A DNA stretch of 64,000 nucleotides from Candidatus Beckwithbacteria bacterium (GTDB lineage Bacteria; Patescibacteriota; Microgenomatia; UBA1400; CG1-02-47-37). Of the stretch, positions 9,899 to 52,301 are shown piece by piece. The stretch covers positions 2,250 to 66,249 of the forward strand of contig JAZDKF010000026.1 in the NCBI GenBank assembly GCA_043803225.1, written 5' to 3'. A program made the translations under genes and the position numbers. Positions within the stretch are counted from its first letter, which is position 1; each line of letters opens with the position of its first letter. Below the pieces are notes generated by a model. That model made no database searches and was not told the origin of the DNA. It worked only from the letters and a program-made list of their open reading frames with translations.

Positions 9899-9899
9899 T

Positions 9900-13752: not shown

Positions 13753-13778
13753 ATTACCAAATCTGCTATAATCCCGTT

Positions 13779-14657: not shown

Positions 14658-14707
14658 TAAAATTCTTAAATTATTAGCTATTACATTTGCCTGCCTAAAT
14701 TTCAGGC

Positions 14708-15274
14708 ATGACTACCAATAAAATGGATCCATTCCAAACTTCAAAAAAGAAAAAATCAGCGCCTAAGTACCAAAACTTTCTTGAGGCTTTTAAGGATATT
14801 GGAACGGCTAAAACTGCTTCCAATCAATCTTCCTCTGATGAATTCTTTAATTTTGAGGAGTTTTTAAATCAACAAGAGCAAAAAATTAGAAATCAGGAGC
14901 GTACCCGTTTTGAAGCTATTAGACGAGAAGAACAGGTAATTTTTTCCCGCGAACAAAACCAAGTAAAAACTCAAATTGAAACCATCCAGGTTCAAATTAA
15001 AGAACTCGTTAAAGAGCAAGTCGGTTTAATGGAAGAGATTGATAAAACTGCTTTTCAGGCTGTAGTTAATCCTGGGAAGTATCATCAAAATTTCTTTGAA
15101 CGCTTACTTCATTTAATTAAACTGGCGCGGAAAAAAGTGGTTGAATCGCGAACTTGGTTGCAGATGCATAATCACCGTAGTCAATGTAAGTCTGCTTACT
15201 GGCAAGGGGTTAAAAAAGGTGGTACCAGCTTTATGCTGTCATCCGACCGAACCGTGGCTACCCAATCCGGCTAG
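14708..15274 (+). CDS. hypothetical coiled-coil protein
   Basis: 188-aa ORF with charged, helical composition and no recognisable motif. Confidence 0.35.
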   Translation: MTTNKMDPFQTSKKKKSAPKYQNFLEAFKDIGTAKTASNQSSSDEFFNFEEFLNQQEQKIRNQERTRFEAIRREEQVIFSREQNQVKTQIETIQVQIKELVKEQVGLMEEIDKTAFQAVVNPGKYHQNFFERLLHLIKLARKKVVESRTWLQMHNHRSQCKSAYWQGVKKGGTSFMLSSDRTVATQSG

Positions 15275-15412
15275 ACGAAATTACTGTTGATCTTTCTTTT
15301 TTCTCTAATTATATCTACAAGTTTTGTATCTATTGACTTTATTTTTATAATTTTATTTTAAGCGTCTGGTATTACCTGTCAAGATTTGGTAAAATTTACT
15401 ATATATAATAAA

Positions 15413-15487
15413 GGACGGTTAGCTCAGCTGGTTCAGAGCGCTTCATTGACATTGAAGAGGTCACAGGTTCAAATCCTGTATCGTCCA
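15413..15487 (+). tRNA. tRNA-Val(GAC)
   Basis: 75 nt. Acceptor GGACGGU/AUCGUCC, D-arm GCUC..GAGC, anticodon stem CUUCA/UGAAG with loop UUGACAU, T-arm ACAGG-UUCAAAU-CCUGU. Confidence 0.88.
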
Positions 15488-15490
15488 CTT

Positions 15491-17257
15491 ATGAAACAAA
15501 ACTTACTTGCCTTAAGGCATACCTGCGAACATGTTCTGCATCAGGCCATGACTGACCTGTATCCCGGTTTGCTCCGGGCGATGGGACCGGCTACCGATGA
15601 TGGTTTTTATCATGATTTTGATTATCACCAGAAAATTACTGATTTAGACTTCCCCAAAATCGAAGCCAGGATGCAGGCGCTGATCCGGGCTGACTTGCCT
15701 CTTGTTCGCCAAATAATCACTTACGATCAGGCTAAAAAAATCTTTGCCCGTAATCCTTATAAATTAGACTGGCTGGAGCGGATTAAACAAAAAGGTGAAA
15801 AGATCATCATTTACACCACCGGCAAACCTGGTGAGCCTCAAGCCGATGTTGATCTTTGTTCCGGACCGCATGTTAAATCAACCGGTGAAATTAAAGCCTT
15901 TAAACTTTTATCTGTTGCCGGCGCTTATTGGCATGGCGATGAAAAAAATAAAATGCTTACAAGGATTTACGGAACGGCTTTTTACTCCCAGCAAGAACTA
16001 GTGGAGCATTTGCACAATCTGGAAGAAGCCAAAAAACGCGATCACCGGCTTTTAGGCAAAAACCTGGATTTATTTGTTTTTTCCGATTTGATTGGTAAAG
16101 GTTTACCCATATTAACTGCCAAAGGCGCCACGATCAGAAGGGAACTAGAACGTTTTACTGTTGACGAAGAAATAAAACGCGGCTATCAGCATGTTTATAC
16201 TCCGGTTCTGGCCAAAACTGAACTTTATAAAACCTCCGGCCATTATCCCTATTATAAAGACACCATGTATCCGACCATGAAAGTCGACGATGAAGAACTG
16301 ATTTTAAGACCGATGACCTGTCCGCACCACTTCTGTCTCTATAACTCCCATCCCAGAAGCTATAAAGACCTTCCCTTCAGAATTGCCGAGTTGGCTCCCC
16401 AATTCCGTTATGAAAAAAGCGGCGAATTAAGCGGTCTGATGCGTGTTCGCACCTTTTGTTTAGCTGATGCCCATATTATGGTTACTAAACAACAAGCAAC
16501 CGCCGAAATTAAATCTGTGCTTGAATTAATCGATTTTATTAATCAAACTCTGGGGCTTAAGAAGGGGACTGATTACCGCTACCGGCTGTCTTTAGGTGAT
16601 CGAACCGATAAGAAAAAATATTACCAAGACAATCAGGCCTGGGATGAAGCCGAAGGAATTTTACGCCAGGTTTTAATCTCTACTAAAGCTCCGTTTTTTG
16701 AAGCCGCTAACGAAGCCGCTTTTTACGGGCCAAAAATCGACGTCCAGATAAAAAATATTGCTGGTAAAGAAGAAACCGCCTTTACTGTTCAATATGATTT
16801 TGTCATGCCCAAACGCTTTAAAATGACTTATACCAATAAGCAAGGCCGGCCTGAAGAACCGATTGTCATCCACCGTTCGTCTATCGGCGCCTTTGAACGC
16901 ACCATGGCTTTTTTAATTGAACACTATAACGGTAATTTCCCTACCTGGCTGGCTCCAGTTCAGGTAAAAATCTTACCCATCTCTGATAAATACTTAGTTT
17001 ATGCTCAATCAGTTTTTAAGGCATTATCTCAAGCTCACATCCGCGCTGAACTGGATGACCACAATGAATCTCTGGGAGCTAAAATCCGGGATGCTCAAAA
17101 AGAAAAAGTTAAGTATATGTTAATTGTTGGCGAGAAAGAAGCCAAATCAAAAACCGTTAGTATCCGTAATCGTGACGGTAAAGATCTTCAATCCAAACCG
17201 CTTGACCAATTTATTAATTCAATCCGCCGGGAAATTGATCAAAAACTAATTAACTGA
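15491..17257 (+). CDS. thrS: threonine--tRNA ligase (lacks N-terminal TGS domain)
   Basis: The start was moved to the ATG at 15491 because the upstream part of the ORF-track ORF is the tRNA-Val gene. It has the editing-domain HxxxH motif HTCEHVLH and a class II core. Confidence 0.88.
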   Translation: MKQNLLALRHTCEHVLHQAMTDLYPGLLRAMGPATDDGFYHDFDYHQKITDLDFPKIEARMQALIRADLPLVRQIITYDQAKKIFARNPYKLDWLERIKQKGEKIIIYTTGKPGEPQADVDLCSGPHVKSTGEIKAFKLLSVAGAYWHGDEKNKMLTRIYGTAFYSQQELVEHLHNLEEAKKRDHRLLGKNLDLFVFSDLIGKGLPILTAKGATIRRELERFTVDEEIKRGYQHVYTPVLAKTELYKTSGHYPYYKDTMYPTMKVDDEELILRPMTCPHHFCLYNSHPRSYKDLPFRIAELAPQFRYEKSGELSGLMRVRTFCLADAHIMVTKQQATAEIKSVLELIDFINQTLGLKKGTDYRYRLSLGDRTDKKKYYQDNQAWDEAEGILRQVLISTKAPFFEAANEAAFYGPKIDVQIKNIAGKEETAFTVQYDFVMPKRFKMTYTNKQGRPEEPIVIHRSSIGAFERTMAFLIEHYNGNFPTWLAPVQVKILPISDKYLVYAQSVFKALSQAHIRAELDDHNESLGAKIRDAQKEKVKYMLIVGEKEAKSKTVSIRNRDGKDLQSKPLDQFINSIRREIDQKLIN

Positions 17258-32185: not shown

Positions 32186-32471
32186 CCTCACCAAGTATCT
32201 CGTCACTAATCTCGTTGATAATCCTGAAGCAGTCGTCGTTGCAGAAAACGTCGATGAATCCGGCACTCATTTAATTTCTATCACTGTTGATCCAACTGAT
32301 ATGGGAAAAATTATCGGCAAAGGCGGTAAAATCATCAACGCCATAAGAGAACTGATTAAAGTCAAAGCCATAAAACAAGGTCTTAGAGTTCGGGTGATGC
32401 TGACCGATCAACACCAAACAAATCCGCCTTTCCCGTCTGAGCCGACGGCAACACTGATTGAAACTGAGTAA
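32178..32471 (+). CDS. KH-domain RNA-binding protein (YlqC/UPF0109-like)
   Basis: Has the GKIIGKGGKIINAIRELI GxxG KH motif and the conserved position after rpsP. Confidence 0.75.
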   Translation: MLNLTKYLVTNLVDNPEAVVVAENVDESGTHLISITVDPTDMGKIIGKGGKIINAIRELIKVKAIKQGLRVRVMLTDQHQTNPPFPSEPTATLIETE

Positions 32472-33120
32472 AATTAAACAGTTTATTCAGCACCATCTCT
32501 TCACCTTTAGATAACAATTTTACCGGCTGGCTAATACTGCCTAATGTTGTCGGCGCCGCTTGATAGTAAGCTGACACATCAATCGACGCTAGCACTAAAG
32601 TTGCCTGATCTTCAAACAAAGGATTAGTTTTAATCGCTAAACCTACGTTATCAATTCTCATTATTGGAGCTGTACTCTCTAATTCCTTTAAAAACTCTAT
32701 AATCTTATTAAAATTGCCGCCCACTTCAAATCCAAAACTAATATCTAGCAATTTACTGCTGGACTTGAGTTTGTCTTTGCTGATTTTTTCTTCTTCAACC
32801 GTTAACTCACCTGGCCTGAGTGCTACCCCTCCAAAAGTTAAACCATGCTTTCGGGCTAAATTAGATAAACTCGATAAAATTTGAACTACTGGTTTTTGCG
32901 ACGGAAAGACTACTTCCATCTTAGTCGCTCTTTCTTTAATTAATTGTTTATCGATACCTTGTAATACCTGAACTTTTGTCTCCAAACTAGCCAAATCTGC
33001 TTTTAGTTTTCGATTTACCGCTAAACGCTGATTTAATCGGCTTAATACCGGACCAAAAACAATAAAACTTAAAATAACCGCTACCGCTATGGCTACTGAT
33101 AACTTATAGTTTTTATTCAT
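32383..33120 (-). CDS. pilO: type IV pilus assembly protein PilO-like
   Basis: N-terminal TM segment plus coiled coil. It is the third gene of a pilM-pilN-pilO run. Confidence 0.6.
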   Translation of the reverse strand: MNKNYKLSVAIAVAVILSFIVFGPVLSRLNQRLAVNRKLKADLASLETKVQVLQGIDKQLIKERATKMEVVFPSQKPVVQILSSLSNLARKHGLTFGGVALRPGELTVEEEKISKDKLKSSSKLLDISFGFEVGGNFNKIIEFLKELESTAPIMRIDNVGLAIKTNPLFEDQATLVLASIDVSAYYQAAPTTLGSISQPVKLLSKGEEMVLNKLFNFTQFQSVLPSAQTGKADLFGVDRSASPEL

Positions 33121-33668
33121 TCGGCTGCTCCAAATCCTAAAGTTAGAAATATACTGAAATTTATTTCAGCCTTGTTATTAAAACTAATCCTTTGTACCCC
33201 TGCTTCTATAATTCTGGCTTGGCCGGCTGTCGGTTCCTTAATTCGCCTGATCAATTCATATAATTTTGGCCAACTGGGCACATTTCCTGATAAAGAAATA
33301 GTTCCATTTTCATTTACTTTAAACCCTTTTAAACTAGTTCCGTCTGGTATCAAACTGAAAATAGCTTCGGCTATCCGCTGATGTTTTTCCTGTTGCTTTA
33401 ATAAATCTTCAAAAGCTGTTATCTTGCTGACTAAAAAAACCTGTTTGCTCTCAACATCTTCTAATTGAGTTATTTGATTTTTTGCTTGAGAAGTCTTTTG
33501 CTCTAGACTTTTGTTAAGCATATTAATTCCAATTCCATAAGCTGATAATCCGGCTATTAAAAGTGCCAGAACAATCCAACCAATTACCACCAACTTCCAC
33601 GCCAATCTCTTTAACTTTTGTTTATCTCTAACTTTTTTTATTTTTTCACTGAGTAAATTTAAATCCAT
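33117..33668 (-). CDS. pilN: type IV pilus assembly protein PilN-like
   Basis: 183 aa. Short cytoplasmic N-terminus, a TM segment (LVVIGWIVLALLIAGL) and a periplasmic coiled coil. Follows pilM. Confidence 0.65.
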   Translation of the reverse strand: MDLNLLSEKIKKVRDKQKLKRLAWKLVVIGWIVLALLIAGLSAYGIGINMLNKSLEQKTSQAKNQITQLEDVESKQVFLVSKITAFEDLLKQQEKHQRIAEAIFSLIPDGTSLKGFKVNENGTISLSGNVPSWPKLYELIRRIKEPTAGQARIIEAGVQRISFNNKAEINFSIFLTLGFGAAE

Positions 33669-33669
33669 T

Positions 33670-34662
33670 TTATATCAACCCTTTTAAAGCCAGTCCGGTT
33701 ACTGTCGCCAGTTGAGGGTTGCTCACCGCCGCAATCTTTTGTTTAAAATCATTATTTTTAATAAACCGGGTAAACGGATCACCCACCACTACTTCTACGT
33801 TTAATTTAGAGGTTAAATAAGCTCCAAGTCCTGGCAACAATCCGCCGCCGCCAGTTAAAATTAGCTCTTCAATTGGCTTGTTAAAATTTTGCTGTTGTAA
33901 AAACATAACCGCTTTATTAATCTGATCAACAATCTCGTCTATCACCGGAGACAGAACTTTGGCTACCTTACCTTCCATTAATTCCTTATTTACCCCATAG
34001 GTCTTTTTATATTCTTCAGCCTGATCAACTGGTAAGTTTAATTCGTTCATTAAACTTTTAGTCAAGGCTCCGCCGCCGACATTAATAGCATAAGTAAACA
34101 ACGATAACCCTTTATTCAGAATCATTAAATCAGTCGTTTGATAACCGAAACTAACAATTGCCTGAGTTTTGCTTTCATCGCCAAATACTCGTTTCAAGCT
34201 GAACAGTTCGGTTTCCAAACTTTTAGGGATTAACTCTGCCTGATCAATTAAATGCATTAAACTGTCAATTTTGGTCCTAGGGACCGCAATTAAAAGTACT
34301 TTCATTAACTTTTCGTTTTCTCCTTCTCTAAATCCTAATACCTGATGATGAAGCTCAACTTCATTTAAAGGGATCGGAATATACTGCTCGGCTTCAAATT
34401 GAATCGAGGAAGCTAGTTCCGTATCAGTTAACTGCGGTGTTTCAATAATTTTTGTAAAGACTTCACTTTCTGCCAAGGCTAAATTAACCTCTACCGCTCC
34501 CCTTATACCCGCTTCTTTAACTGCCTGCTGAATCGAAATTGCCAAGTTCTTTGGATCACTATTAACCACTGCCACCTTTGCCACCTTAAACTCATGATTG
34601 CTTTTCTCTGCTTGTAATACTTTTATCTGAGTTGAACCGATATCTAAACCAAAAAAAGACAT
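33670..34662 (-). CDS. pilM: type IV pilus assembly ATPase-fold protein PilM
   Basis: Actin-like fold N-terminus MSFFGLDIGSTQIKV. Length 330 aa. Confidence 0.8.
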   Translation of the reverse strand: MSFFGLDIGSTQIKVLQAEKSNHEFKVAKVAVVNSDPKNLAISIQQAVKEAGIRGAVEVNLALAESEVFTKIIETPQLTDTELASSIQFEAEQYIPIPLNEVELHHQVLGFREGENEKLMKVLLIAVPRTKIDSLMHLIDQAELIPKSLETELFSLKRVFGDESKTQAIVSFGYQTTDLMILNKGLSLFTYAINVGGGALTKSLMNELNLPVDQAEEYKKTYGVNKELMEGKVAKVLSPVIDEIVDQINKAVMFLQQQNFNKPIEELILTGGGGLLPGLGAYLTSKLNVEVVVGDPFTRFIKNNDFKQKIAAVSNPQLATVTGLALKGLI

Positions 34663-34676
34663 GGGCAGAGCCTTTC

Positions 34677-35465
34677 TTATTGCATTATATTAGTTCCGGA
34701 AAATAAAACAAAGTCAAATATTGCCGGCACCGCCGAAACTGATCGGCTAACTTGAATTGCCTTAGATTCCAAAGTCGGAGATTGAGCTGATGAATCAATT
34801 ATATAGGTTTGAACCGGCAGATTCGTCCCTGTAACTCGTATTGTTGCTTGATTATATAACGGTCTTATCCTGACCCGTTCATCATTTGGTCCTACCGCTA
34901 AGCTATACTTTTTTAAATAACCGTCTTCACCGTCACTGACACCAACCCTGGTTAAACCATTTTCAGCGTCTAAATTACAGGCATTAATCGCTGTCCGCTG
35001 GACATTTCCGTTAACATCAATCACGCTAATTAACAATGACGCTGGCGCTCCGCCGCTGACTCCATTACAGCTCTCTTCTGGATTTTCCAGTTCATTACTG
35101 CTTTCCACCCAGTTAATCGTTAATGTGTCGGCTCCGCCTAACACCACCTCAGCCACATCATTTTCTCTGACTATTGTTTCTACAAAACTTGCTTCCTCAA
35201 CCGAATAATCAACTTCGATATTGTCAACAGACATGCTACTGCTTCCGCCTATCAAAAGCAAACCGCTTAAATTCGTTAATGCTTCTTCAATGCCGGCTTC
35301 AGCCGCATTAAACGCCCGGACCGATTCTTCGCTGTGGCCGGTAATTTGCACATCAGTAATTGACTGAGAAATTATCGACAATCCAAATCCTAAAGCCACT
35401 GCCACCACTAAAAGCACTATTAGCACTGCCTGTCCTTGTTGGTAAATTTTTTTCTGCCAGTTCAT
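34677..35465 (-). CDS. PilX-like pilus assembly/minor pilin-associated protein
   Basis: The N-terminus QQGQAVLIVLLVVAVALGFGLSIIS resembles a PilX_N hydrophobic segment. Confidence 0.45.
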   Translation of the reverse strand: MNWQKKIYQQGQAVLIVLLVVAVALGFGLSIISQSITDVQITGHSEESVRAFNAAEAGIEEALTNLSGLLLIGGSSSMSVDNIEVDYSVEEASFVETIVRENDVAEVVLGGADTLTINWVESSNELENPEESCNGVSGGAPASLLISVIDVNGNVQRTAINACNLDAENGLTRVGVSDGEDGYLKKYSLAVGPNDERVRIRPLYNQATIRVTGTNLPVQTYIIDSSAQSPTLESKAIQVSRSVSAVPAIFDFVLFSGTNIMQ

Positions 35466-35485
35466 CCTGATTTAATAGTACGACA

Positions 35486-35968
35486 TCAATACTGTCTTGT
35501 CGAGACCGAAGTCGCAAAACTCTGATTCAGCTTTTCCTGAACCTGATGAGCGTCTTCATCTCCGGCAATTAAACTAAATCTGATTGTCACAATCTGATTA
35601 CCTACTTGGCCGTTATAACAATTAAAGCTTCCCGCAGTTAAATCAGCCACCGGCCCGGTTAAAAAACTGCTGTCCGAAGCGACCCGTTCACCTGACAAAT
35701 CATAAAGAATCGTGGCTCCATCAGTCCGATTCACTGTTAGCTGATCATTGTCACAAACAACACTTTCTGCCGCTCTAATCTCTTGCGCCATTGTCTTGAT
35801 CGCAAAGTCACCGTTTTGTCTGACTGCCTGAATCAATTGCGCCTTGCTCCCGCCACTAAAACTGGCCATAAACACGCTGATTAAAGTTATACTGAACAAA
35901 ACCATTATTCCCGACACCACCACCAACTCAATTAAAGTAAAACCTGAAATTTTTCTTATCTTTCCCAT
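35486..35968 (-). CDS. prepilin-type minor pilin
   Basis: Class III signal peptide MGKIRKISG|FTLIELVVV, which is the G-FTLIE prepilin cleavage/methylation motif. Confidence 0.8.
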   Translation of the reverse strand: MGKIRKISGFTLIELVVVSGIMVLFSITLISVFMASFSGGSKAQLIQAVRQNGDFAIKTMAQEIRAAESVVCDNDQLTVNRTDGATILYDLSGERVASDSSFLTGPVADLTAGSFNCYNGQVGNQIVTIRFSLIAGDEDAHQVQEKLNQSFATSVSTRQY

Positions 35969-36414
35969 AAAGACAAACTAGTTTGCTGAACAGCGTTATA
36001 TCTTTGACTGCCTTCCTGCCAGCTTACTGTAACTATGACAGTAGCGGTATTGCTGCCGGTATCAGTTATTCTCACACACCGTTTAAAAAAATCATCAATA
36101 TTATTGGTTTCAGGGCAAATGGCGCTTAAACTACTTTCCACTGTCCAACCCTTGGCTAAGTCGTATTCCGAACCGGCCTTAGCCAACAATTCTGTCCAGC
36201 TTAAATCCCGGTAAGTCCGAATCAACTCCACACCTTCCTGAGCAAAACCGACGGCTTTAGTTCTGTCTTTGGCCAGTCGGCTGTTTTTAACTGATAAAGA
36301 AATTAAAGCCAACACCGCCGTCAGCAATAAAGCCATCATTCCGACGGCGACAATTACCTCAACCAAACTTTGACCTGGATTTTTACGGGGTCGAATCGTA
36401 ACAACACTTGTCAT
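35956..36414 (-). CDS. prepilin-type minor pilin (PilV-like)
   Basis: N-terminus ...NPG|QSLVEVIVAVGMMALL is a prepilin-like hydrophobic segment. Confidence 0.6.
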   Translation of the reverse strand: MTSVVTIRPRKNPGQSLVEVIVAVGMMALLLTAVLALISLSVKNSRLAKDRTKAVGFAQEGVELIRTYRDLSWTELLAKAGSEYDLAKGWTVESSLSAICPETNNIDDFFKRCVRITDTGSNTATVIVTVSWQEGSQRYNAVQQTSLSLWER

Positions 36415-36981
36415 TTAGTACCCCCCTGGTCTACCTATGGGCGAGGGTGATGGCGAAGGCGAGGGTGAAACTAAATCCGGACTGGAAGATGGCAATGGTG
36501 AATCTAAAACCGTCTCACTTCTGATTACTCCGCTTGGTTCAATTACTACTTGATAAGAATAACTCAAACCGATTTTGCTTAAATAAATTGTCTGAGCACC
36601 GTCCACATCAGATCTTAGATTATTAAACCTTAATGATTCAGGCCAGGGAGCTGTAAAAATAACCTCGTTATCTAAAGTCCAGCTAACCGCCGTAGTCACC
36701 TTGCCTTCACAGAGCGGCGACACTGAATAGCTGTCTTCAGCTACATAACTTACTTCATAGCCTAAAAACTTATCCGCTGTCGTACATTCAGCCGGCTTTT
36801 CTCCAGCTAGAGCTCTTTGCTGGAAAAGACGCAAGTTGGTTTGAAAACTGATTCCGGCCTGTTTTACTTGCTGTTTGCCACTGATGCTTCGGTAGGCGAC
36901 TATGCCTCCTGAAAATAACACTCCGCTGATCACGGCTACAACCATTAATTCGATTAAAGAAAACCCTGGCATTTGTCTCAT
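36415..36981 (-). CDS. prepilin-type pilin with C-terminal (Pro-Ser)n tail
   Basis: Leader MRQMPG|FSLIELMVV. I chose the start at 36981, which gives a 6-aa leader and no overlap with the upstream gene; the ORF-track start at 37005 is the alternative. The C-terminus is ...SPLPSSSPDLVSPSPSPSPSPIGRPGGY. Confidence 0.75.
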   Translation of the reverse strand: MRQMPGFSLIELMVVAVISGVLFSGGIVAYRSISGKQQVKQAGISFQTNLRLFQQRALAGEKPAECTTADKFLGYEVSYVAEDSYSVSPLCEGKVTTAVSWTLDNEVIFTAPWPESLRFNNLRSDVDGAQTIYLSKIGLSYSYQVVIEPSGVIRSETVLDSPLPSSSPDLVSPSPSPSPSPIGRPGGY

Positions 36982-36982
36982 C

Positions 36983-37408
36983 TTATAGTGGGCTGCTAAC
37001 CTCATAATTGCATCCTGCCTCGCTACAACCTGCTACAGCTGAATCATCACTCTTAGCTAGCTCTAAATAGGCAGCTAAAATATAAGTTGATCCGTCAGAA
37101 CTGTAAACATAGCTATTTCCTTCTAATGGATCACCTGGCATCTCTCCAAGATAAGTCACTCCGCCGGCGGCTAAACTTTCACCCGCATCTGGAAATTGCG
37201 CTGTAGTTGGGTATACATCCTGATCAGTTCGATAAAGTTCTAAAGCCGCTCTAACCTGCTGTAGATCGCCTTGCCGTCTGCCGTCTCTGGCTTTTTGATT
37301 AGCTACCCTAAAACTAGTCGTCCCAATGGTAGTTAAAACCGCAATAATCGTCACTGTTACTAACATCTCGATAAAAGTAAAGCCTGATTTTGCTTTTAAC
37401 TTTTTCAT
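36983..37408 (-). CDS. type IV pilin / GspG-like pseudopilin
   Basis: Leader MKKLKAKSG|FTFIEMLVTV. The region KARDGRRQGDLQQVRAALELY is typical of GspG/major pilin. Confidence 0.8.
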   Translation of the reverse strand: MKKLKAKSGFTFIEMLVTVTIIAVLTTIGTTSFRVANQKARDGRRQGDLQQVRAALELYRTDQDVYPTTAQFPDAGESLAAGGVTYLGEMPGDPLEGNSYVYSSDGSTYILAAYLELAKSDDSAVAGCSEAGCNYEVSSPL

Positions 37409-37821
37409 TGTTGGCTATAAACACAAAAATCTTGATTAGGATTATCAGTCTCCCATTCTCCATCGCTTTCCAGATCAATACAAAACTGATACGCATCACT
37501 GGTCATACTAACAGCAAGATAATCAGATCCGTCTTTCGGATCTACCGGTATCTCTTGCATCGTCACTGTTGTTCCATCAACACAAGTTAGAACTTCACCC
37601 CAGGTTATATCCGGATACTCATTATCTATCGCATAGCATTCTTCCATGGCCTTTTGGACCGCTTTCATATCAGCTTGCCTGCGCGAATCCCGGCCCCTTT
37701 TTTGCGCCGTTGAAAAACTAACCGATCCTATTCCCAGTAAAATCCCAATAATTGAAATAGTTACCAATAACTCTAATAAAGTAAAACCTTTAGATACCAC
37801 TGCCATATTGTTTCTCCCCAT
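37405..37821 (-). CDS. type IV pilin / GspG-like pseudopilin
   Basis: Leader ...SKG|FTLLELLVTISIIGILLGI followed by KRGRDSRRQADMKAVQKAMEEC. Confidence 0.8.
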   Translation of the reverse strand: MGRNNMAVVSKGFTLLELLVTISIIGILLGIGSVSFSTAQKRGRDSRRQADMKAVQKAMEECYAIDNEYPDITWGEVLTCVDGTTVTMQEIPVDPKDGSDYLAVSMTSDAYQFCIDLESDGEWETDNPNQDFCVYSQQ

Positions 37822-38555
37822 AATTTTGCCGCTAACATCGCCAGTAATAAAAATGGTCCAAAAGCGATTCTGTCCTTAAGCTTTTTCTTGCCTCTTATTA
37901 TTAGTATCACACCCACAACTGCACCTGTCAAGAAAGCAATCAAGTAGGCTACCAGAATTTTCGGCCAACCTAAAACTAGGCCTAAAAGCACTGCCAGTTT
38001 TATATCCCCAAAACCCATGCCTTTTTTCTTAGTCAATAAATATAAAGAGTAAATAAAGATAAACGAACCTAAAGCCGTCCAAATCACTTGCCATTGTCCG
38101 GAGAAGGGGAGTCGAAGCAAGGCCAAACCAATTAAGGGATATAAAATCTCATCTGGAATTAACATATACTTTAAATCAAAAATAATAATTCCTATTGATC
38201 CGGAAAATAAAATCAGCCAGTAAATCAGCAAAGCCAGACTGTAAAACCCCTCCCAGCTGTTAAAAAAATTAAAGTTCACTGACAACAGCCAATAAACCCA
38301 GACAAATTCAATTCCTATCAACAATTCTGTTAACGGGTATTCAACCGGAATCTTGCGCTGGCACTTACGGCATCTGCCTTTTAAAATTAAAAATGACAGT
38401 AAAGGAATATTGTCATACCAGCCAATTTTTGCCTGGCACTGATCACAGTGAGACCGGCCGGTGATAAACGATTCTCCCTTTTTAATTCGATAAACCATTA
38501 CGTTTAGAAAACTTCCCACCGCCAAACCTAAAACAAACAAAATCAGATACGTCAT
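37773..38555 (-). CDS. pilD: prepilin peptidase (A24 family, PilD)
   Basis: The cytoplasmic Cys cluster CDQCQAKI...CRKCQRKI follows an eight-TM protein body. Confidence 0.85.
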   Translation of the reverse strand: MTYLILFVLGLAVGSFLNVMVYRIKKGESFITGRSHCDQCQAKIGWYDNIPLLSFLILKGRCRKCQRKIPVEYPLTELLIGIEFVWVYWLLSVNFNFFNSWEGFYSLALLIYWLILFSGSIGIIIFDLKYMLIPDEILYPLIGLALLRLPFSGQWQVIWTALGSFIFIYSLYLLTKKKGMGFGDIKLAVLLGLVLGWPKILVAYLIAFLTGAVVGVILIIRGKKKLKDRIAFGPFLLLAMLAAKLWGETIWQWYLKVLLY

Positions 38556-38573
38556 TCTCTAAATATATCATAT

Positions 38574-38595
38574 CTTCCACCTCTAAGGTGGAAAG
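38574..38595. repeat. REP-like palindromic element, copy 1 (cttccacc-tctaa-ggtggaag)
   Basis: Near-perfect hairpin 45 nt upstream of the RAYT gene start. The same core sequence recurs at 39147-39169. Confidence 0.7.
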
Positions 38596-38618
38596 TTGAT
38601 ATGCTATGATTAAGTATT

Positions 38619-39281
38619 ATGCCCGGTAGACTAATTCCCTTAGTTACCAATGAAATCTATCATGTTTTTAATAAAGGTATTTCTTCTCAAATAGTATTTG
38701 CTGATAAATCTGATTATCAAAGAGCAGAGGATTCTCTTCTTTATTACAAGCACGCCAAACCGCCAATCAAATATTCACGATTATTTTCTATACATAAAGA
38801 CTCTCGAAACGACTTGATTAAACAGTTGGAAAAAGAAAAAAATAATTTAGTTGATCTAATTACATATTGCTTTATGCCAAATCATTTTCATCTTTTATTA
38901 AAACAACTTGTTGATAATGGTATTTCACAATATTTAAGTAATTATTCTAATAGTTATACCCGTTATTTTAATACCAAGCATGAAAGATTAGGACCATTAT
39001 TCCAAGGCAAATTTAAAGCTGTCCATATTGAAAACAATGAACAATTACTGCACGTTTCCAGATACATCCATCTTAATCCCTACTCTTCTTCAATTATCGG
39101 TTCAACCGAACAATTAAAAACTTATCCATACTCATCCTTATATAAACTTTCCACCTCTAAGGTGGAAAGTAATATTATAATAAATCAATTTAAAAATATT
39201 AACGAATACTATAAATTTATAATCGACCAAGCCGATTACCAAAAACAACTCCAAAATATTAAAAAACTTACCTTGGAATAA
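38619..39281 (+). mobile_element. REP-associated tyrosine transposase (RAYT; IS200/IS605 Y1 HUH transposase family)
   Basis: HUH motif CFMPNHFHLLL and the catalytic-Tyr region SRYIHLNPY (YxxxNP). It is flanked by, and partly contains, copies of a 22-23-nt palindrome, and it interrupts the T4P gene cluster. Confidence 0.75.
39147..39169. repeat. REP-like palindromic element, copy 2 (ctttccacc-tctaa-ggtggaaag, 9-bp perfect stem)
   Basis: The same palindrome as at 38574-38595, here inside the 3' part of the RAYT ORF where it encodes ...KLSTSKVES.... Confidence 0.7.
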
Positions 39282-39285
39282 CTAA

Positions 39286-39309
39286 AAACCCCTCGTTGCC
39301 GAGGGGTTT
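39286..39309. terminator. bidirectional intrinsic terminator between RAYT (+) and a pilin gene (-)
   Basis: aaaaa-CCCCTCG-ttgc-CGAGGGG-ttt: a 7-bp GC-rich stem with an A-tract 5' and a T-tract 3'. Confidence 0.6.
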
Positions 39310-39330
39310 AAACTAACCTTTAAATCAAAT

Positions 39331-40041
39331 TTACTCTTCAGGAATACAGACAAAAGCCGCTAAGGTAACATCAGTCCAATCCGGTGTTTCTGTACTCGGC
39401 CAAGGAGCAATTGCCGAAGGGATAGCATCTTCACCTGTTCCTACCCAAGTCAATTGTTTCAGTTTGGTTGTATCTGCACCAGAGGTTGGATCAGTATCAT
39501 CAAAAGTATCTCGGGTGGCTTTTGATTGCGGCATAAAACAAATACTCACTGAAGGATCACCTTCTAATTTCACTACAAACAACTTATCTGCCGTCGGTAA
39601 AGTCGGAAAGACTTTAAAGTAATTTCTTTTGGCAAACTGAGACTTTAATTCCTGAGTCTCAATCAAATATCCATAGTGATTCACTCCGCCGGCATCTACT
39701 TCAGCTAAACACCCGGAAGCATCGCTATTTTCAGCTATGCCTGTAGTTACGTCACCACCGACTGCAGTACACACCCCAACTCCAACCATACGGGCATTAC
39801 CGTAAAAAGCCGCATCGGTACTCTCAGCATAATCAGCATAGTTATTCCAGGGAAACTTTAAATTTGAAGCAAAATAACGGTCTAAGGCGCTGATCAACTG
39901 CGACGCATCCGCCCGCTTGCTCGCATCTCTGGCTTTATTAATCTGTTCAATCGGGTTAATTGCTGATAGTACGGCTACTGCTAAAATTCCAATCAAGGTA
40001 ATTACCACTAACAACTCAATTAAGGTAAAGCCTTTCTTCAT
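39331..40041 (-). CDS. type IV pilin (large pilin subunit, 236 aa; candidate major pilin)
   Basis: The start was trimmed to the ATG at 40041, giving leader MKKG|FTLIELLVVITLIGILAVAVL. The ORF-track N-terminal extension lacks a prepilin leader. Confidence 0.8.
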   Translation of the reverse strand: MKKGFTLIELLVVITLIGILAVAVLSAINPIEQINKARDASKRADASQLISALDRYFASNLKFPWNNYADYAESTDAAFYGNARMVGVGVCTAVGGDVTTGIAENSDASGCLAEVDAGGVNHYGYLIETQELKSQFAKRNYFKVFPTLPTADKLFVVKLEGDPSVSICFMPQSKATRDTFDDTDPTSGADTTKLKQLTWVGTGEDAIPSAIAPWPSTETPDWTDVTLAAFVCIPEE

Positions 40042-40054
40042 AAACACACCTCCG

Positions 40055-41260
40055 TTAAAACTGGCTGGTAAGATTGTAAATGGGCAGGATAATGGCAATT
40101 ACCAGAAATGCCACACCTATACCTAGTACTATCATCATAAGTGGCTCAATTGCCGTTGTCAAGCCTTTGATTGCCTGTTCTGACTCGGTCTCAAAATAGC
40201 CGGAAACATTGAACAATACTTCGTCAACTTTCCCGGTTTCTTCGCCCACGGCAATCATTTGGGCAACAATCGGTGGAAAGTGTTCAAACTGTCCAATTGC
40301 CGCGGCTAAAGGAATGCCTTTTTCCACATCCTTGGCCGCTTGCTTAATTGACTTGCTGAATAAATAATTATCCGCTGCTCCAGCCACAATCTCCAAAGCT
40401 TCAACAATCGAAATCCCTGACTCAACTAATAAAGCCAGTGTCCGGGTAATCTCAGTTAAAATTATCTTGGTTTTTAACTTACCGATTATCGGCATCTTTA
40501 AAATATACTGGTCATACTTGGCTCTTCCCCCAGGCGTCTTCTGCCACTGCCAAAAACTATAACTACCCCCGATTAGCAATAATAGCTGAAAATACCAACT
40601 CTTTACCATAAAGTTAGATAAACCAATTAATATCTTCGTCATTCCCGGCAGATCAGCTCCAAATTCGTCATAAAGCGAAGTAATTTTCGGGATTACAAAT
40701 ACCATCATTATTACTGCCACGGCAATCATGGCTACGCTGATTATCAGCGGATAAATTAAAGCATTCTTGGTTTTGGCCCTGAACTCTGCTTGTTTTTCCA
40801 TATTCGTGGCTAACCTTATTAGCACCTTTTCTAACACCCCCGCCGCTTCGCCCGATTGAATTAAGGATAAATAAACTTTATTAAAAACCTGCTCATGCTT
40901 GCTTAAAGCCTTAAAAAAAGAATTGCCCCCTTCCACTTCTCTTAATACCTCATCAACGATTACTCCCATACCCACACCTGATTGGTACTTTAAAATTGCT
41001 AAAGCCTGAGCCAAGGGTAAACCCGCATTCACCATCGTCGCCAGCTGTCGGGTAAAATGAACCACATGGTCATTTTTAATCTTTTTAAAACTATTCAGCC
41101 ACTTCATCCAACCCGGGACCACTTCAATCTTTTCCAAATCAATAATAAATAATCCTTTCTGCCTTAAAATACTCTGGGCTTGGATTAAATTAACCGCCTC
41201 CACTATTCCTTTTAATTTTCGGTTTTCTTTATTAGTCGCGCAGTAATTATACTTTTCCAT
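40055..41260 (-). CDS. pilC: type IV pilus inner-membrane platform protein PilC (GspF family)
   Basis: 401 aa with two GspF repeats and polytopic TM segments. Confidence 0.85.
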   Translation of the reverse strand: MEKYNYCATNKENRKLKGIVEAVNLIQAQSILRQKGLFIIDLEKIEVVPGWMKWLNSFKKIKNDHVVHFTRQLATMVNAGLPLAQALAILKYQSGVGMGVIVDEVLREVEGGNSFFKALSKHEQVFNKVYLSLIQSGEAAGVLEKVLIRLATNMEKQAEFRAKTKNALIYPLIISVAMIAVAVIMMVFVIPKITSLYDEFGADLPGMTKILIGLSNFMVKSWYFQLLLLIGGSYSFWQWQKTPGGRAKYDQYILKMPIIGKLKTKIILTEITRTLALLVESGISIVEALEIVAGAADNYLFSKSIKQAAKDVEKGIPLAAAIGQFEHFPPIVAQMIAVGEETGKVDEVLFNVSGYFETESEQAIKGLTTAIEPLMMIVLGIGVAFLVIAIILPIYNLTSQF

Positions 41261-41265
41261 AAACT

Positions 41266-42321
41266 TTATCTGCTCTTAATTAAGCGGAGTAAAGAATTAG
41301 GATCCAAACAGTATTCCTGAGCTGTCTTAAAATCAATCTTCCCCGCTATAATCTGCTTTGCCAAATCTTGTTCCAAAGAATGCATCCCTACATCACCTGA
41401 AGTCTGAATCACATTATTTAATAAATGTGACTTACCTTCCCGGATACTGGTCTTAACCGCATTGGTCCCTAGTAAAACTTCGGTCGCCGCCACCCGGCCA
41501 CCGCCGATTGCCGGAACCAGTCTCTGAGCCATTACCACTGACAAAGTGCTGGACAACTGTATCCGAATCTGGCCTTGCTGATGTTCTGGAAACACATCCA
41601 CAATCCGGTCAACAGTTTGGGCCGCACTATTAGTGTGTAGTGTCGCTAGCACCAGATGGCCGGTTTCCGCCACGGTTAATGCTGCCGCGATTGTCTCATA
41701 ATCCCGCATTTCTCCGACTAAAACTACATCCGGGTCTTCTCTTAAAGCTGATCGTAGCGCCACTGTCCAGGAATGAGTATCGCCATGCATCTCTCTTTGG
41801 GAAATAATACTTTTAATCGGTTTATAAATATACTCGATTGGATCTTCAATCGTTAAAATATGGTCTGCCCGGTTCTGGTTAATTTGGTTAATTATTGCCG
41901 CTAAACTGGTGCTCTTTCCATGTCCGGTCGGACCGGTCACTAACACTAGTCCTTGCTTTAACTCCGCCACTTCCAAGCAAATTTTAGGTAAGTTTAACTC
42001 CTCAATTGATCTGATTTTATCGCTGATTAACCGTAAAGCCGCTGCCATGCTGCCCTGTTGAAAATAAACATTTACCCTGAACCGGCCCAGTTCGCCAAAA
42101 GCCACGGAAAAATCCAGCTCTTTATTAACCAAAAACTTGTCCTTTTGCTGTGGAGTCAATAATGGAAAAATCAAATCCTTAGCTTTCGACTCTGTTAAAA
42201 TCTCTTTGTCCACTGGTTTTAACTCACCGTCAATCCTTAAGTGCGGCGGTGATCCGACTGTCAAATGCAAGTCAGAAGCTTGAGCTTCAATTGTTTTTTT
42301 AAGCAATTCTTTAATATCCAT
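41266..42321 (-). CDS. pilT: type IV pilus retraction ATPase PilT
   Basis: 351 aa. Walker A motif GPTGHGKST and a PilT-family Asp box/His box. The size is typical of PilT. Confidence 0.8.
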   Translation of the reverse strand: MDIKELLKKTIEAQASDLHLTVGSPPHLRIDGELKPVDKEILTESKAKDLIFPLLTPQQKDKFLVNKELDFSVAFGELGRFRVNVYFQQGSMAAALRLISDKIRSIEELNLPKICLEVAELKQGLVLVTGPTGHGKSTSLAAIINQINQNRADHILTIEDPIEYIYKPIKSIISQREMHGDTHSWTVALRSALREDPDVVLVGEMRDYETIAAALTVAETGHLVLATLHTNSAAQTVDRIVDVFPEHQQGQIRIQLSSTLSVVMAQRLVPAIGGGRVAATEVLLGTNAVKTSIREGKSHLLNNVIQTSGDVGMHSLEQDLAKQIIAGKIDFKTAQEYCLDPNSLLRLIKSR

Positions 42322-42325
42322 AAAC

Positions 42326-44077
42326 TTAACTTTCTGCTACTCTAAGGACTTCCTCTAAAGTAGTCAATCCTTCTAATGTTTTAATATAACCGTCTTGCTT
42401 CATATCAATCATACCATTAGCTTTAGCTTCAGCTTCGATCTTCGAAGAAGGGGAGTGCTCTAAAATCAGCCGCCCGATCTTTTCTGTTACTGGCAAAACC
42501 TCAAAAATTCCGATTCTGCCTGAATAACCGGTACCGTTACACTCCGAACACTTTTTGCCTCGGTAAAACAAAATTTTATTAAGCTTCCGACTGCTCATAA
42601 AACTAGTAAGCAAAGGTCCTAATATTTTTTTAACATCGGCCAACACTGACTCAACTGGCTCATAAGACTCCTTACAATGTTCACAGACTTTTCGGCAGAC
42701 CCGCTGGCCGACTACTGAAGTCATTGACGATGCCAATAAAAACGGTTCCATGTCCATATCTAACAGCCGGGGTAATGCTCCTGAAGCACTATTCGTATGT
42801 AAAGTTGAAAAAACTAAGTGACCGGTTAACGACGCTTGAATCGCCAACTCAGCTGTTTCTTTGTCTCGAATCTCACCCACCATGATAATGTTTGGATCCT
42901 GACGTAAAAATGATCTTAAACCCGAAGAAAAAGTTAAGCCTGCTTGGGGATTAATCTGCACCTGAGTAATTCCGGCAATTTGATACTCCACCGGATCTTC
43001 CAAAGTCATAATATTTACCCTTGGGGTATTAATCATGGTTAAAAGTGAATAAAGCGTGGTAGTTTTGCCTGATCCGGTCGGACCGGTAACTAAAACAATC
43101 CCGTGCGGTACCCGAATGGCAGCTTGCAAATTAGTTAATGCCCGGCCCCTAAGCCCCAACTCTGACAGTTCTGGTACATGAATTGCTTTCTGCAACAACC
43201 GCATCACTATTTTCTCCCCATGAACCGAGGGTAGAGAAGACACCCTTAAATCAACTTCTTCTTCATTAGCCTTGAAACTAAACCTGCCATCCTGCGGGAT
43301 TCGTTTTTCATCAATCTTCATATGCGACAAAATCTTAATCCGGCTAATCACACTGTCATGAACACTGCGCGGTAAAATCAGTTTCTCGTATAAAATTCCG
43401 TCAATCCTGTACCGAACTCGAGTCTTTTCTTCTAAAGGTTCAATGTGGACATCACTGGCTTTGGCTTTAATTGCAAACTCAAGAATTGTTGATACGATCT
43501 TAGCCACTGGCGCTTCTCTGATCACCCCGCCTGCCAGATCATCAACCACCATTTTTTTAGCCTGGATTACATTAGTCTCTTTCAAAGCCTCAGTTACTTC
43601 AGAAGATAAGCTTTGAGAATACCTTTCTCTTATCTGTTTTATTAACTTGCTGGCCTCACCTAAAAATGGCTGCAGCCTCATTCCTGTCTTTGTCTCAATA
43701 AACTCCAAAGCCTGTAAATCAATCGGATTGGCCATGACAATTGATAAAGTCTTTTTCTCCCGATCCAAAGCAAAAGGCAGCACTAGGTATTTTTCCGCGA
43801 CTGCTTCAGGCAGTAAATTCAAAGCTTCAGGTGAAGTACTGGCCGCCGACACATCCATATAAGGTACTTTTAAAATCTCCGCCTTTGCCTGGGCAATCAC
43901 TGCCTCTGGCACCAAGTTATGCTTGACTAACAACTCTTCTGCCGATAAAGACGTCCCTAATAACTCACTCGAGATCCTTTCATGATCTTCCCGATTAATC
44001 TTTTCTAATTTAAGCAATAAATCCAAAAGCTGGCTGTCTTGGGCAGGCATATTAAAATTATTATATACTACTAACAA
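42326..44077 (-). CDS. pilB: type IV pilus assembly ATPase PilB (GspE family)
   Basis: 583 aa. Has an N-terminal GSPII domain, Walker A motif GPTGSGKTTT, and a tetracysteine motif CEHC...CSEC. Confidence 0.88.
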   Translation of the reverse strand: MLVVYNNFNMPAQDSQLLDLLLKLEKINREDHERISSELLGTSLSAEELLVKHNLVPEAVIAQAKAEILKVPYMDVSAASTSPEALNLLPEAVAEKYLVLPFALDREKKTLSIVMANPIDLQALEFIETKTGMRLQPFLGEASKLIKQIRERYSQSLSSEVTEALKETNVIQAKKMVVDDLAGGVIREAPVAKIVSTILEFAIKAKASDVHIEPLEEKTRVRYRIDGILYEKLILPRSVHDSVISRIKILSHMKIDEKRIPQDGRFSFKANEEEVDLRVSSLPSVHGEKIVMRLLQKAIHVPELSELGLRGRALTNLQAAIRVPHGIVLVTGPTGSGKTTTLYSLLTMINTPRVNIMTLEDPVEYQIAGITQVQINPQAGLTFSSGLRSFLRQDPNIIMVGEIRDKETAELAIQASLTGHLVFSTLHTNSASGALPRLLDMDMEPFLLASSMTSVVGQRVCRKVCEHCKESYEPVESVLADVKKILGPLLTSFMSSRKLNKILFYRGKKCSECNGTGYSGRIGIFEVLPVTEKIGRLILEHSPSSKIEAEAKANGMIDMKQDGYIKTLEGLTTLEEVLRVAES

Positions 44078-51338: not shown

Positions 51339-52301
51339 TTATTTATTTCCTGAGTGATACTTTTGATATAACTCTTTTAAATGCTGATTGGTTACATGAG
51401 TATAAATCTGCGTTGTCGCAATATTTTTATGTCCCAACATTTCCTGGACTGCCCGGATATCTGCTCCGGCCATTAACAAGTCGGTTGCATAGCTATGCCT
51501 TAAACCGTGCGGGGTAATCTTTACCGGAATCCTGGCCAAATTAATATATTTCTTTACAATCCTCTGCACTGATCGGGGAGTCAACCTCATTTTTTCACCT
51601 TGGCTGGCTTCGCTTTTGACTCCGCCGAAGTGGATAAACATCGGCCGGAAATCATCTTCCCGTTTGTTTAAATATCGTTTTAGCCACTCTTTAGCCCGTT
51701 TGCTTAAAAACACCACCCGCTGCCGGCCGCCTTTGCCGATCACTCCAAACTCGCCCCGGTTCAAATCGATCTCTTCCCGATTCAGCTTAACCAGTTCCGA
51801 AACCCGCAGTCCCGTTGAAAACAGCATCTCCAATACCGCCTTATCTCTTAACTGAGATAACTTGGAAATTCCTACGCTGCCTAAAAGTCTCTCTACTTGT
51901 TCTGTGTTTAAAAACTTTAATGATTTACTCTCGGTTTTTGGCAGTTCAATCTTTTCCGGTGCCAGGCAGCTAACATCCCGTTTAATTAAATACTTTAAAA
52001 ACGATCTCAGGCAAATCACATGATAAGCTTGGGTGGCTCGGCTTAGTGTTTCACCTCGTGGTGTTTGCATTCTGGCCAAAAACACCCGATACCTGGTCAC
52101 CATATCTAAACTTAACTTTCTTATCTGAAACTTTTCTTCCATTTGTTTAGTCCACTTGAGGAAACGGATCAAATAATGACGGTAATTTCTGACCGTCAAC
52201 CTTGAACAGTTGCGTTCAATTTCCAGATATTCTAAAAACTCCTCGATATACCTCATGAGCTCATCTTCGCTTTTTCTTAGTATTTTCTCATTAGCACTCA
52301 T
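51339..52301 (-). CDS. tyrosine site-specific recombinase, XerC/XerD family
   Basis: C-terminal catalytic motif HGLRHSYATDLLMAGADIRAVQEMLGHKNIATTQIYTHV (R..H..R..Y). Confidence 0.85.
   Translation of the reverse strand: MSANEKILRKSEDELMRYIEEFLEYLEIERNCSRLTVRNYRHYLIRFLKWTKQMEEKFQIRKLSLDMVTRYRVFLARMQTPRGETLSRATQAYHVICLRSFLKYLIKRDVSCLAPEKIELPKTESKSLKFLNTEQVERLLGSVGISKLSQLRDKAVLEMLFSTGLRVSELVKLNREEIDLNRGEFGVIGKGGRQRVVFLSKRAKEWLKRYLNKREDDFRPMFIHFGGVKSEASQGEKMRLTPRSVQRIVKKYINLARIPVKITPHGLRHSYATDLLMAGADIRAVQEMLGHKNIATTQIYTHVTNQHLKELYQKYHSGNK

Follow-up and report, generated by a model that had tools for sequence, protein, structure and literature searches.

Gene content of the pilus locus

The window, a stretch of 64,000 nucleotides (nt) from Candidatus Beckwithbacteria bacterium (contig JAZDKF010000026.1, positions 2,250 to 66,249), carries a type IV pilus (T4P) locus at its positions 32383-44077. 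A sequence-only reading of this DNA had described a complete secretin-less pilus machine, fitted with one ATPase for extension and another for retraction, in a reduced-genome host of the type found in the Candidate Phyla Radiation (CPR). Candidatus Beckwithbacteria is such a host, and the machine is borne out gene for gene by family, motif and structure matches, the listing of open reading frames (ORFs) of the window reproducing the gene map at the positions of Table 1. Along the minus strand the order is PilB, PilT, PilC, a pilin of 236 amino acids (aa), PilD, five prepilins, a PilX-like protein, and PilM, PilN and PilO. The genes are closely packed or overlapping inside two stretches, pilB-pilT-pilC-pilin and pilD to pilO, which is consistent with two operons. 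The minus-strand placement holds for the pilus genes, but a plus-strand gene for a 220-aa IS200/RAYT-like protein (38619-39281) had been overlooked. Ten proteins of the locus match exactly public records within MFH0943146-59 (locus tags V1810_0316x-), which belong to a metagenome-assembled genome of Candidatus Beckwithbacteria. The automated NCBI annotation of these records names PilT, PilM, the prepilin peptidase, a type II secretion system (T2SS) F protein and the transposase, while PilN, PilO and the PilX-like protein are hypothetical there.

PilT exceeds the cut-off of its equivalog model and aligns over its full length with the solved PilT structures 2gsz, 2ewv, 6ojx and 3jvu from Aquifex, Geobacter and Pseudomonas (E 1e-94 to 6e-99). 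PilU is matched at E 2e-79, and PilB at about 1e-29 through the ATPase core only. The protein has the Walker A (GPTGHGKST), Asp box (EDPIE), Walker B (VVLVGEMR) and His box (TLHTN) motifs of PilT. The AIRNLIRE-type motif reads AVKTSIRE at residue 288, and variants of it are also found in PilT orthologues of related loci. The possibility that pilT might be a second pilB paralog can thus be set aside in favor of a retraction ATPase. The best PDB matches of PilB are to full-length PilF/PilB (429-436 bits), as against 371 bits for GspE, where the match starts only from residue 87. PilB has Walker A (GPTGSGKTT) at residue 332, the Asp box, Walker B and the His box, and its translation contains the cysteine pairs CEHC...CSEC. 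Its more likely start is the ATG at 44050, nine codons downstream of the TTG from which the ORF was listed.

PilD has CDQC at residue 37, CRKC at 62 and GFGD at 181-184. The A24 domain and the Cys-rich methyltransferase region point to a prepilin peptidase. Six ORFs of the locus have a class III signal peptide, with a leader of 4-14 residues, G-1 and, in all cases, E+5; F+1 is present in five of the six and Q+1 in one. The six pilin-like genes that had been counted earlier are these six prepilin ORFs with the N-methylation motif. Five of them had been described as consecutive and as sharing the leader G↓F(T/S)LIE (the arrow marks the cleavage site). They do lie in tandem, but the literal motif does not hold, since the leader at 35956-36414, for example, is G↓QSLVE. 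Over the six pilins, five leaders fit the wider form G↓F(T/S)(L/F)(I/L)E and one is G↓QSLVE. A six-frame scan of the 64 kb for the leader motif returned the six prepilins and two internal matches in the DnaB and PilC genes, which are irrelevant, so the clustering is far beyond chance. The cysteine count is even in each pilin, two or four. Together with the N_methyl and TIGR02532 matches, G-1 and E+5, this shows the leaders to be genuine.

The larger pilin is 236 aa long, as had been stated, given the ATG start at 40041; the mechanical ORF from a TTG would make it 255 aa. It has 1149 homologues at E<=1e-5, aligned over the full length, and in this family C91, C111, C168 and C232 are invariant, as is a C-terminal C-x-P-E (CIPEE here). 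Most homologues have a further cysteine pair, which has been lost from the window protein and its closest relatives. In the AlphaFold2 model (predicted local distance difference test score, pLDDT, 90) a helix of residues 7-60 is followed by a mixed alpha/beta head. In a comparison with known pilins, its profile matches type IVa (T4a) pilins over the N-terminal 60-100 residues (Geobacter PilA-N, Neisseria PilE and S. sanguinis PilE1), but a Foldseek search of the whole model against the PDB gave no significant match, the best being gonococcal pilin at E=0.72, with PilA1 of C. difficile in 40th place. The gene has the best promoter-like match of the locus upstream and the top-ranked terminator-like hairpin downstream. 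These sites, which are consensus matches only, fit a candidate highly expressed major subunit.

The two small pilins encoded after pilD resemble GspG, the 138-aa protein in its N-terminal half only. After them come the GspH-like pilin, the GspI/PilV-like pilin, a third minor pilin and the GspK/PilX-like protein. The canonical gene order of the core minor pilins is H-I-J-K, which this succession matches. Among the four, the GspH-like pilin is the only one for which sequence similarity gives decent support, and the GspI, GspJ and GspK assignments follow from N-terminal similarity and gene order, with the AlphaFold2 model in addition for PilX. The GspI/PilV-like pilin has positional orthologues in 34 loci, and its profile matched nothing significant in the PDB. 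For the 160-aa minor pilin, a profile of 24 orthologues matches pilin N-termini with E down to 3e-8. The PilX-like protein has 145 database homologues, many of them with PF14341, and its AlphaFold2 model (pLDDT 88.5) consists of a 66-residue helix (residues 3-68) and a beta-sandwich. In fold, the model weakly resembles jelly-roll/cupin, CBM6 and adhesin domains, and a search of the family profile against PDB sequences found only weak matches to the gamma-adaptin appendage (E=0.004). As to the GspH-like pilin, its C-terminal tail (36415-36500, minus strand) is rich in Ser and Pro: PLPSSSPDLVSPSPSPSPSPIGRPGGY. The orthologues range from 149 to 337 aa, a variation that makes a lineage-specific tail probable; it may act as a linker or as a region of glycosylation.

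PilM is recognized above its model cut-off. A search with the single PilN sequence found no pilus-family match in Pfam or NCBIfam, and profiles for PilN and PilO were made from the ORFs downstream of pilM in related loci. With 20 positional orthologues, the top PDB match of the PilN profile is M. xanthus PilN (3jc8, E=1e-3, residues 3-146), and with 21 orthologues the PilO profile matches M. xanthus PilO (3jc8, E=2e-13) and P. aeruginosa PilO (2rjz, E=9e-7). These matches argue for a PilM-PilN-PilO alignment subcomplex, weakly as far as PilN is concerned.

Table 1. Features of the pilus locus and of the insertion within it (positions in the window)
Feature	Position	Strand	Remarks
pilB, extension ATPase	42326..44077	-	583 aa from TTG; T2SSE 433 bits and MshEN N-domain 58 bits
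pilT, retraction ATPase	41266..42321	-	351 aa; TIGR01420 454.8 bits (cut-off 319.1)
pilC, inner-membrane platform protein	40055..41260	-	401 aa; two T2SSF (PF00482) domains, 202 bits; GspF and PilC models 330-340 bits
Sigma-70-like promoter match, best in locus	40134..40162	-	TTGACA-17-TATGAT, 11/12 matches, ~90 nt upstream of pilin ATG
Candidate major pilin	39331..40041	-	236 aa, leader MKKG↓FTLIE; N_methyl 31 bits and TIGR02532
Intrinsic-terminator-like hairpin, top-ranked	39286..39309	-	10-bp stem and T-run on minus strand, directly after pilin stop codon
IS200/RAYT-like Y1 (HUH) transposase	38619..39281	+	220 aa; PF01797 35.7 bits (cut-off 23); not a pilus component
Hairpin copy 2, TTTCCACCTCTAAGGTGGAAA	39148..39168	+	Within transposase ORF, at about codon 177
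Hairpin copy 1, CTTCCACCTCTAAGGTGGAAA	38574..38594	+	In 63-nt divergent pilD/transposase spacer
pilD, prepilin peptidase/N-methyltransferase	37773..38555	-	260 aa; A24_N_bact (PF06750) 115 bits and Peptidase_A24 (PF01478) 67 bits
Small pilin	37405..37821	-	138 aa, G↓FTLLE; N_methyl 29 bits; TIGR01710 37 bits, below 88.85; four Cys
Small pilin with T2SSG-fold domain	36983..37408	-	141 aa, G↓FTFIE; PF08334 24.6 bits (cut-off 21); TIGR01710 44.5, below 88.85
GspH/FimU-like minor pilin	36415..37005	-	196 aa, G↓FSLIE; TIGR01708 GspH E=2e-10, residues 14-159
GspI/PilV-like minor pilin	35956..36414	-	152 aa, G↓QSLVE; XpsI 27 bits, PilV 18 bits, both below cut-off and N-terminal only
Minor pilin in GspJ/PilW position	35486..35968	-	160 aa, G↓FTLIE; N_methyl 18 bits; J/W name by gene order only
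PilX/GspK-like protein	34677..35465	-	262 aa, without E+5; PilX_N 20.7 bits (cut-off 25.5); GspK N-terminus E=0.002
pilM, actin-like cytoplasmic alignment protein	33670..34662	-	330 aa; PF11104 165 bits; TIGR01175 189 bits (cut-off 133)
pilN-like bitopic protein	33117..33668	-	183 aa; by profile
pilO-like protein	32383..33120	-	245 aa; PF04350 21.1 bits (cut-off 22)

Conservation of the locus and the cell envelope

Related loci were collected by a scan seeded with PilT in one genome per GTDB species, which returned 80 loci (numbered L below), onto which the window proteins were mapped; the record labels in this set are partly unreliable (one reads 'uncultured Pseudomonadales'). The nearest PilT loci are from Beckwithbacteria, with 72-81% identity. 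The conserved order is gyrB-holB, followed by pilB-pilT-pilC-pilin-pilD-small pilins-GspH-like-GspI-like-third pilin-PilX-like-pilM-pilN-pilO, followed by KH-rpsP-rnc. It is kept in full in Beckwithbacteria (L003, L014), Chisholm-, Gottesman- and Woesebacteria and other Microgenomates, and the pilB-pilD core with the gyrB-holB flank is also present in Dojkabacteria, WWE3, CPR3, Nomurabacteria and contigs labelled Saccharibacteria. Where there is enough upstream DNA, holB and gyrB are found upstream in 62 of 65 loci. The most frequent number of prepilin ORFs is six (14 of the 32 loci that span pilC to pilM), and most of the related CPR loci have two small GspG-like pilins in this same place. 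Since gene order and flanks recur in dozens of CPR genomes, the window locus is, as judged from gene content and order, the standard form of a conserved CPR T4P locus.

The two ends of the locus are tightly joined to their neighbors. At 32383-32471 the 3' ends of pilO (minus strand) and of the KH-domain gene (plus strand) overlap convergently by 89 nt. At 44050-44077 pilB and holB start back to back, with a 1-nt overlap if pilB starts at the TTG and 26 nt apart if it starts at the ATG, so that the promoters of both genes must lie within the adjoining coding sequences.

Pfam scans of about 60 window ORFs found no Secretin, ComEC (Competence), ComEA-type or DprA domain, and PilP, TsaP and PilY1 were likewise not detected in the window. 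The claim that the secretin PilQ is missing thus holds within the 64 kb, and the search for comEC, comEA and dprA that had been suggested comes out negative over the same ORFs. The absence of PilQ is the published norm for CPR, in which T4P genes are enriched and co-localized without it (PMC6744442). The neighbors of the locus are housekeeping genes and include those for MurT/GatD, a class A penicillin-binding protein (PBP1), LytR_C, Lgt and LspA. The wall genes among them, which are of Gram-positive type, support a monoderm-type envelope with a Gram-positive-like wall, in keeping with the lack of any outer-membrane family in the window. The MurT/GatD pair, encoded at 8774-10619 (plus strand), serves peptidoglycan iso-glutamine amidation, and is typical of Gram-positive bacteria.

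Assembly, role and alternative readings

We read the locus, with a probability of about 0.9, as encoding a single-membrane, secretin-less, type IVa-like pilus machine of the kind typical of CPR/Patescibacteria. How it would work can be pictured by analogy with characterized type IVa pili (T4aP). PilD would cut the short leaders of the six prepilins after Gly-1 and methylate the new N-terminus. A PilB hexamer docked to the PilC platform, with the PilM-PilN-PilO alignment complex keeping it in place, would then extract pilins from the membrane into a filament. The filament would be made chiefly of the 236-aa pilin, whose gene has the best promoter-like and terminator-like sites of the locus. The GspH-like, GspI/PilV-like and third minor pilins, with the PilX/GspK-like protein that has no leader site, would form a priming or tip complex, and the two small GspG-like pilins may be extra minor or alternative subunits. 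For retraction, PilT would take the place of PilB at the base and depolymerize the filament.

The most likely role of such a pilus, by analogy with T4P locus one of Saccharibacteria, would be attachment to surfaces or host cells together with twitching motility; capture of DNA for a ComEC pathway is possible as an additional role. Locus one (T4P-1 of Nanosynbacter lyticus TM7x, T4P1 of S. epibionticum) likewise unites pilB, pilT, pilC, pilD, pilM/N/O and at least five pilins in one locus, without a secretin. In TM7x it has the same gene content, and one of two pili is proposed to be its product; twitching motility involves the thick pilus, which is essential (PMC12206443). Pili mediate host attachment in Saccharibacteria (PMC9894109). 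PilX1 of TM7x, like the PilX-like protein here, lacks a PilD site and has a beta-sandwich/jelly-roll domain (PMC12206443), a description that the long helix and beta-sandwich of our model match. The loci labelled Saccharibacteria also share the gyrB-holB flank and the pilB-pilT-pilC-pilin-pilD order with the window. In spite of these likenesses, the window comes from a different CPR class (Microgenomates/Beckwithbacteria), its candidate major pilin is one of a large Microgenomates family in which four Cys and C-x-P-E are invariant, it carries an inserted transposase gene, and its system is predicted from genes. PilT of the contigs labelled Saccharibacteria, where the labels are unreliable, is 57-60% identical to that of the window.

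Several points weigh against our reading. Gene identities, motifs and gene order are shown directly, and from them the filament, its retraction, its expression and the choice of major pilin are predicted. The functional role is extrapolated from Saccharibacteria, at the PilT identity just given, and the pilins of TM7x are reported to share little with other Patescibacteria pilins beyond N-terminal features (PMC12206443). PilB falls under both relevant equivalog cut-offs (TIGR02538 PilB, 557 against 676; GspE, 564 against 630), so that PilB is preferred to GspE on account of its order of matches in the PDB, the alignment of the N-terminus and the gene neighborhood. The match behind PilN is weak (E=1e-3). 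The absence of secretin and com genes covers 64 kb of an 86.8-kb contig only. Finally, the transposase gene parts the pilin gene from pilD, and the downstream block of ten genes then needs a promoter of its own, which is putative.

Retractile, PilT-containing T4aP import DNA in other bacteria, and one alternative is that the pilus feeds ComEC, for transformation or nucleotide scavenging, rather than serving attachment and motility. CPR genomes usually encode ComEC and DprA, with which T4P have been proposed to act (PMC6744442), and Saccharibacteria are naturally transformable through ComEC (PMC10633639). However, the locus misses the ComG equivalogs (ComGA 266, below 300; ComGB 145, below 240; ComGC at most 26, below 75), and no comEC, comEA or dprA is found in the 64-kb window. 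In S. epibionticum the T4P genes are essential whereas comEC, which serves transformation, is dispensable, so that the essential role there is not competence (PMC10633639). The thin pilus of TM7x (T4P-2), according to an excerpt of the study describing it, aids host binding and not competence (PMC12206443). On balance a pilus devoted to competence is unlikely.

The sequence-only reading had itself offered another alternative, in which the two tandem GspG-like genes (36983-37821) indicate a hybrid T2SS/competence pseudopilus. As a secretion system, it would work as a short protein-secreting piston in place of a long surface pilus. The ATPase, platform, peptidase and pseudopilin folds of the T2SS and of ComG are indeed homologous to those of the pilus. 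The Pfam T2SSG domain of the 141-aa pilin is over its cut-off (24.6 against 21), and GspG, GspH, GspF, GspE and, for PilO, GspM are the top NCBIfam models of several components, with GspG, GspH and GspK the best names, if sub-threshold ones, for some of the pilins. Every Gsp equivalog, however, is below its cut-off (GspG, 44.5 and 37 against 88.85; GspM, 23 against 60), as are those of ComG, and GspD, GspC and GspL are all missing from the window. A true PilT is present, PilM/N/O are of the T4aP type, and PilB is closer to full-length PilB/PilF than to GspE. The small GspG-like pilins are, moreover, standard parts of the CPR pilus locus, and in Saccharibacteria pili have been seen and tied genetically to a locus of the same gene content (PMC12206443). 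We therefore consider a secretion piston scarcely credible.

The secretin-less pilus machine that we favor has closer and more distant counterparts. The single T4P locus of the Microgenomates genome Ch65 (Kadnikov et al., 2020, PMC7143001) has the same components in one locus, with pilQ absent, and the CPR-wide T4P module (Meheust et al., 2019, PMC6744442) also has the same components and no pilQ. Adhesion, twitching and DNA uptake were proposed as roles for both (PMC7143001, PMC6744442). There is essentially no difference in system type from these two, and the window is a further genome that carries the same system. The diderm T4aP of P. aeruginosa, M. xanthus and Neisseria likewise have PilB/PilT, PilC, PilD, PilMNO, short-leader pilins with F+1 and E+5, and H-I-J-K minor pilins. 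Unlike them, the window is without a detected PilQ, PilP, TsaP or PilY1, and its envelope is probably monoderm-like. The T4P of the Gram-positive Clostridium and Streptococcus sanguinis are also secretin-less, with pilB/C/D/M/N/O/T clustered with several pilins and small pilins in tandem. The sequences are distant from those of the window, however, whose gene order and housekeeping flanks are CPR-specific.

That CPR have such a T4P locus, what it consists of, that it lacks a secretin and which roles it probably plays has all been published. Descriptions of the locus type exist for CPR and Microgenomates, and Saccharibacteria have been the subject of experiments on it (PMC6744442, PMC7143001, PMC9894109, PMC10633639, PMC12206443). 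The window supplies a further well-preserved case of the pilus machine on which ultrasmall CPR bacteria are believed to rely for attachment to their hosts. The locus also makes evident how strongly the locus and its chromosomal neighborhood are conserved across Microgenomates, and allows PilN, PilO and PilX-type roles to be assigned to three proteins that are publicly hypothetical. The pilus locus itself opens no new question.

Insertions beside the pilin gene

The spacer between the pilin gene and pilD is 775 nt long here, as against 13-114 nt in Beckwithbacteria relatives without the transposase. The transposase has the HUH motif as NHFHLL, and RYIHLNP. Its domain and motifs mark it as a probable IS200/IS605-type Y1 transposase or one associated with repetitive extragenic palindromes (REP), but it misses the RAYT equivalog cut-off (NF047646, 44 bits, below 80). 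In L002, L053, L101 and L105 the transposase gene likewise lies between the pilin gene and pilD, with a transposase identity of 49-84%, and the same slot holds the transposase in at least three lineages. A decaying locus, in which the insertion has uncoupled or silenced part of the system, might be suspected from the widened spacer but is hardly believable, since all pilus ORFs are full length with their motifs intact, the insertion is intergenic, and retention of the arrangement in relatives indicates that it is old and tolerated.

The 21-nt palindrome TTTCCACCTCTAAGGTGGAAA occurs in two direct copies in the window, both at the transposase gene, against 0 matches expected by chance. Copy 1 lies 25 nt upstream of the transposase start and 19-39 nt upstream of the pilD start codon. 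The spacing of the pair, 568-574 nt, is also found in metagenome contigs. The exact 19-nt core of the hairpin is present in at least 120 metagenome contigs, of which, among those listed, 28 have a RAYT homologue (33-84% identity) and 92 carry solo copies. The core is often nested inside a longer inverted repeat. On the strength of these sequence features, the transposase and hairpins look like a REP/RAYT-type, REPIN-like or IS200-like system in CPR. Among the papers searched, none connects RAYT or REPIN with Patescibacteria. It could be supposed further that the transposase represents a non-random, vertically inherited CPR system of the REP/RAYT type, stably tied to the pilus locus, and that the hairpin upstream of pilD could affect expression of the pilD-minor-pilin-pilMNO genes or of the pilin. 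This we hold to be very improbable, and nothing found in the analysis ties the transposase or the hairpin to pilus function.

In other Microgenomates the space between the major pilin gene and pilD is occupied differently. An insert of about 4.7 kb is found there in Gottesmanbacteria and other Microgenomates (L047, L011, L023, L038, L043, L048, L053, L055, L057, L069). In L047 it comprises 12855-14864 (plus strand) and 14761-16998 (minus strand), which encode a protein O-mannosyltransferase of the TMEM260-like/PMT_2 type with TPR repeats (79.5 bits) and, in addition, a membrane protein resembling YfhO. From their sequence these are candidate genes for O-glycosylation of pilin. An insert of this glycosyltransferase type is absent from the window. 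The REP/RAYT-like hairpin family of CPR and the glycosyltransferase genes beside the pilin gene of relatives may perhaps be worthier of follow-up than the pilus locus.

Related RAYT genes are found between gyrB and holB in other CPR genomes (L001, L005). The hairpins that flank them, at 7574-7598 in L001 and at 2983-3009 and 3667-3701 in L005, are of a different family, with the loop TTGGA. Between the two genomes the stems differ by compensatory changes (CTGCAGGG against CTACAAGG), which suggests that this hairpin is functionally constrained. Elsewhere in the window, a tyrosine recombinase gene (51339-52301, minus strand) lies directly after gyrA, and its product, with Phage_integrase and SAM-like N-domains, is XerC/D-like.

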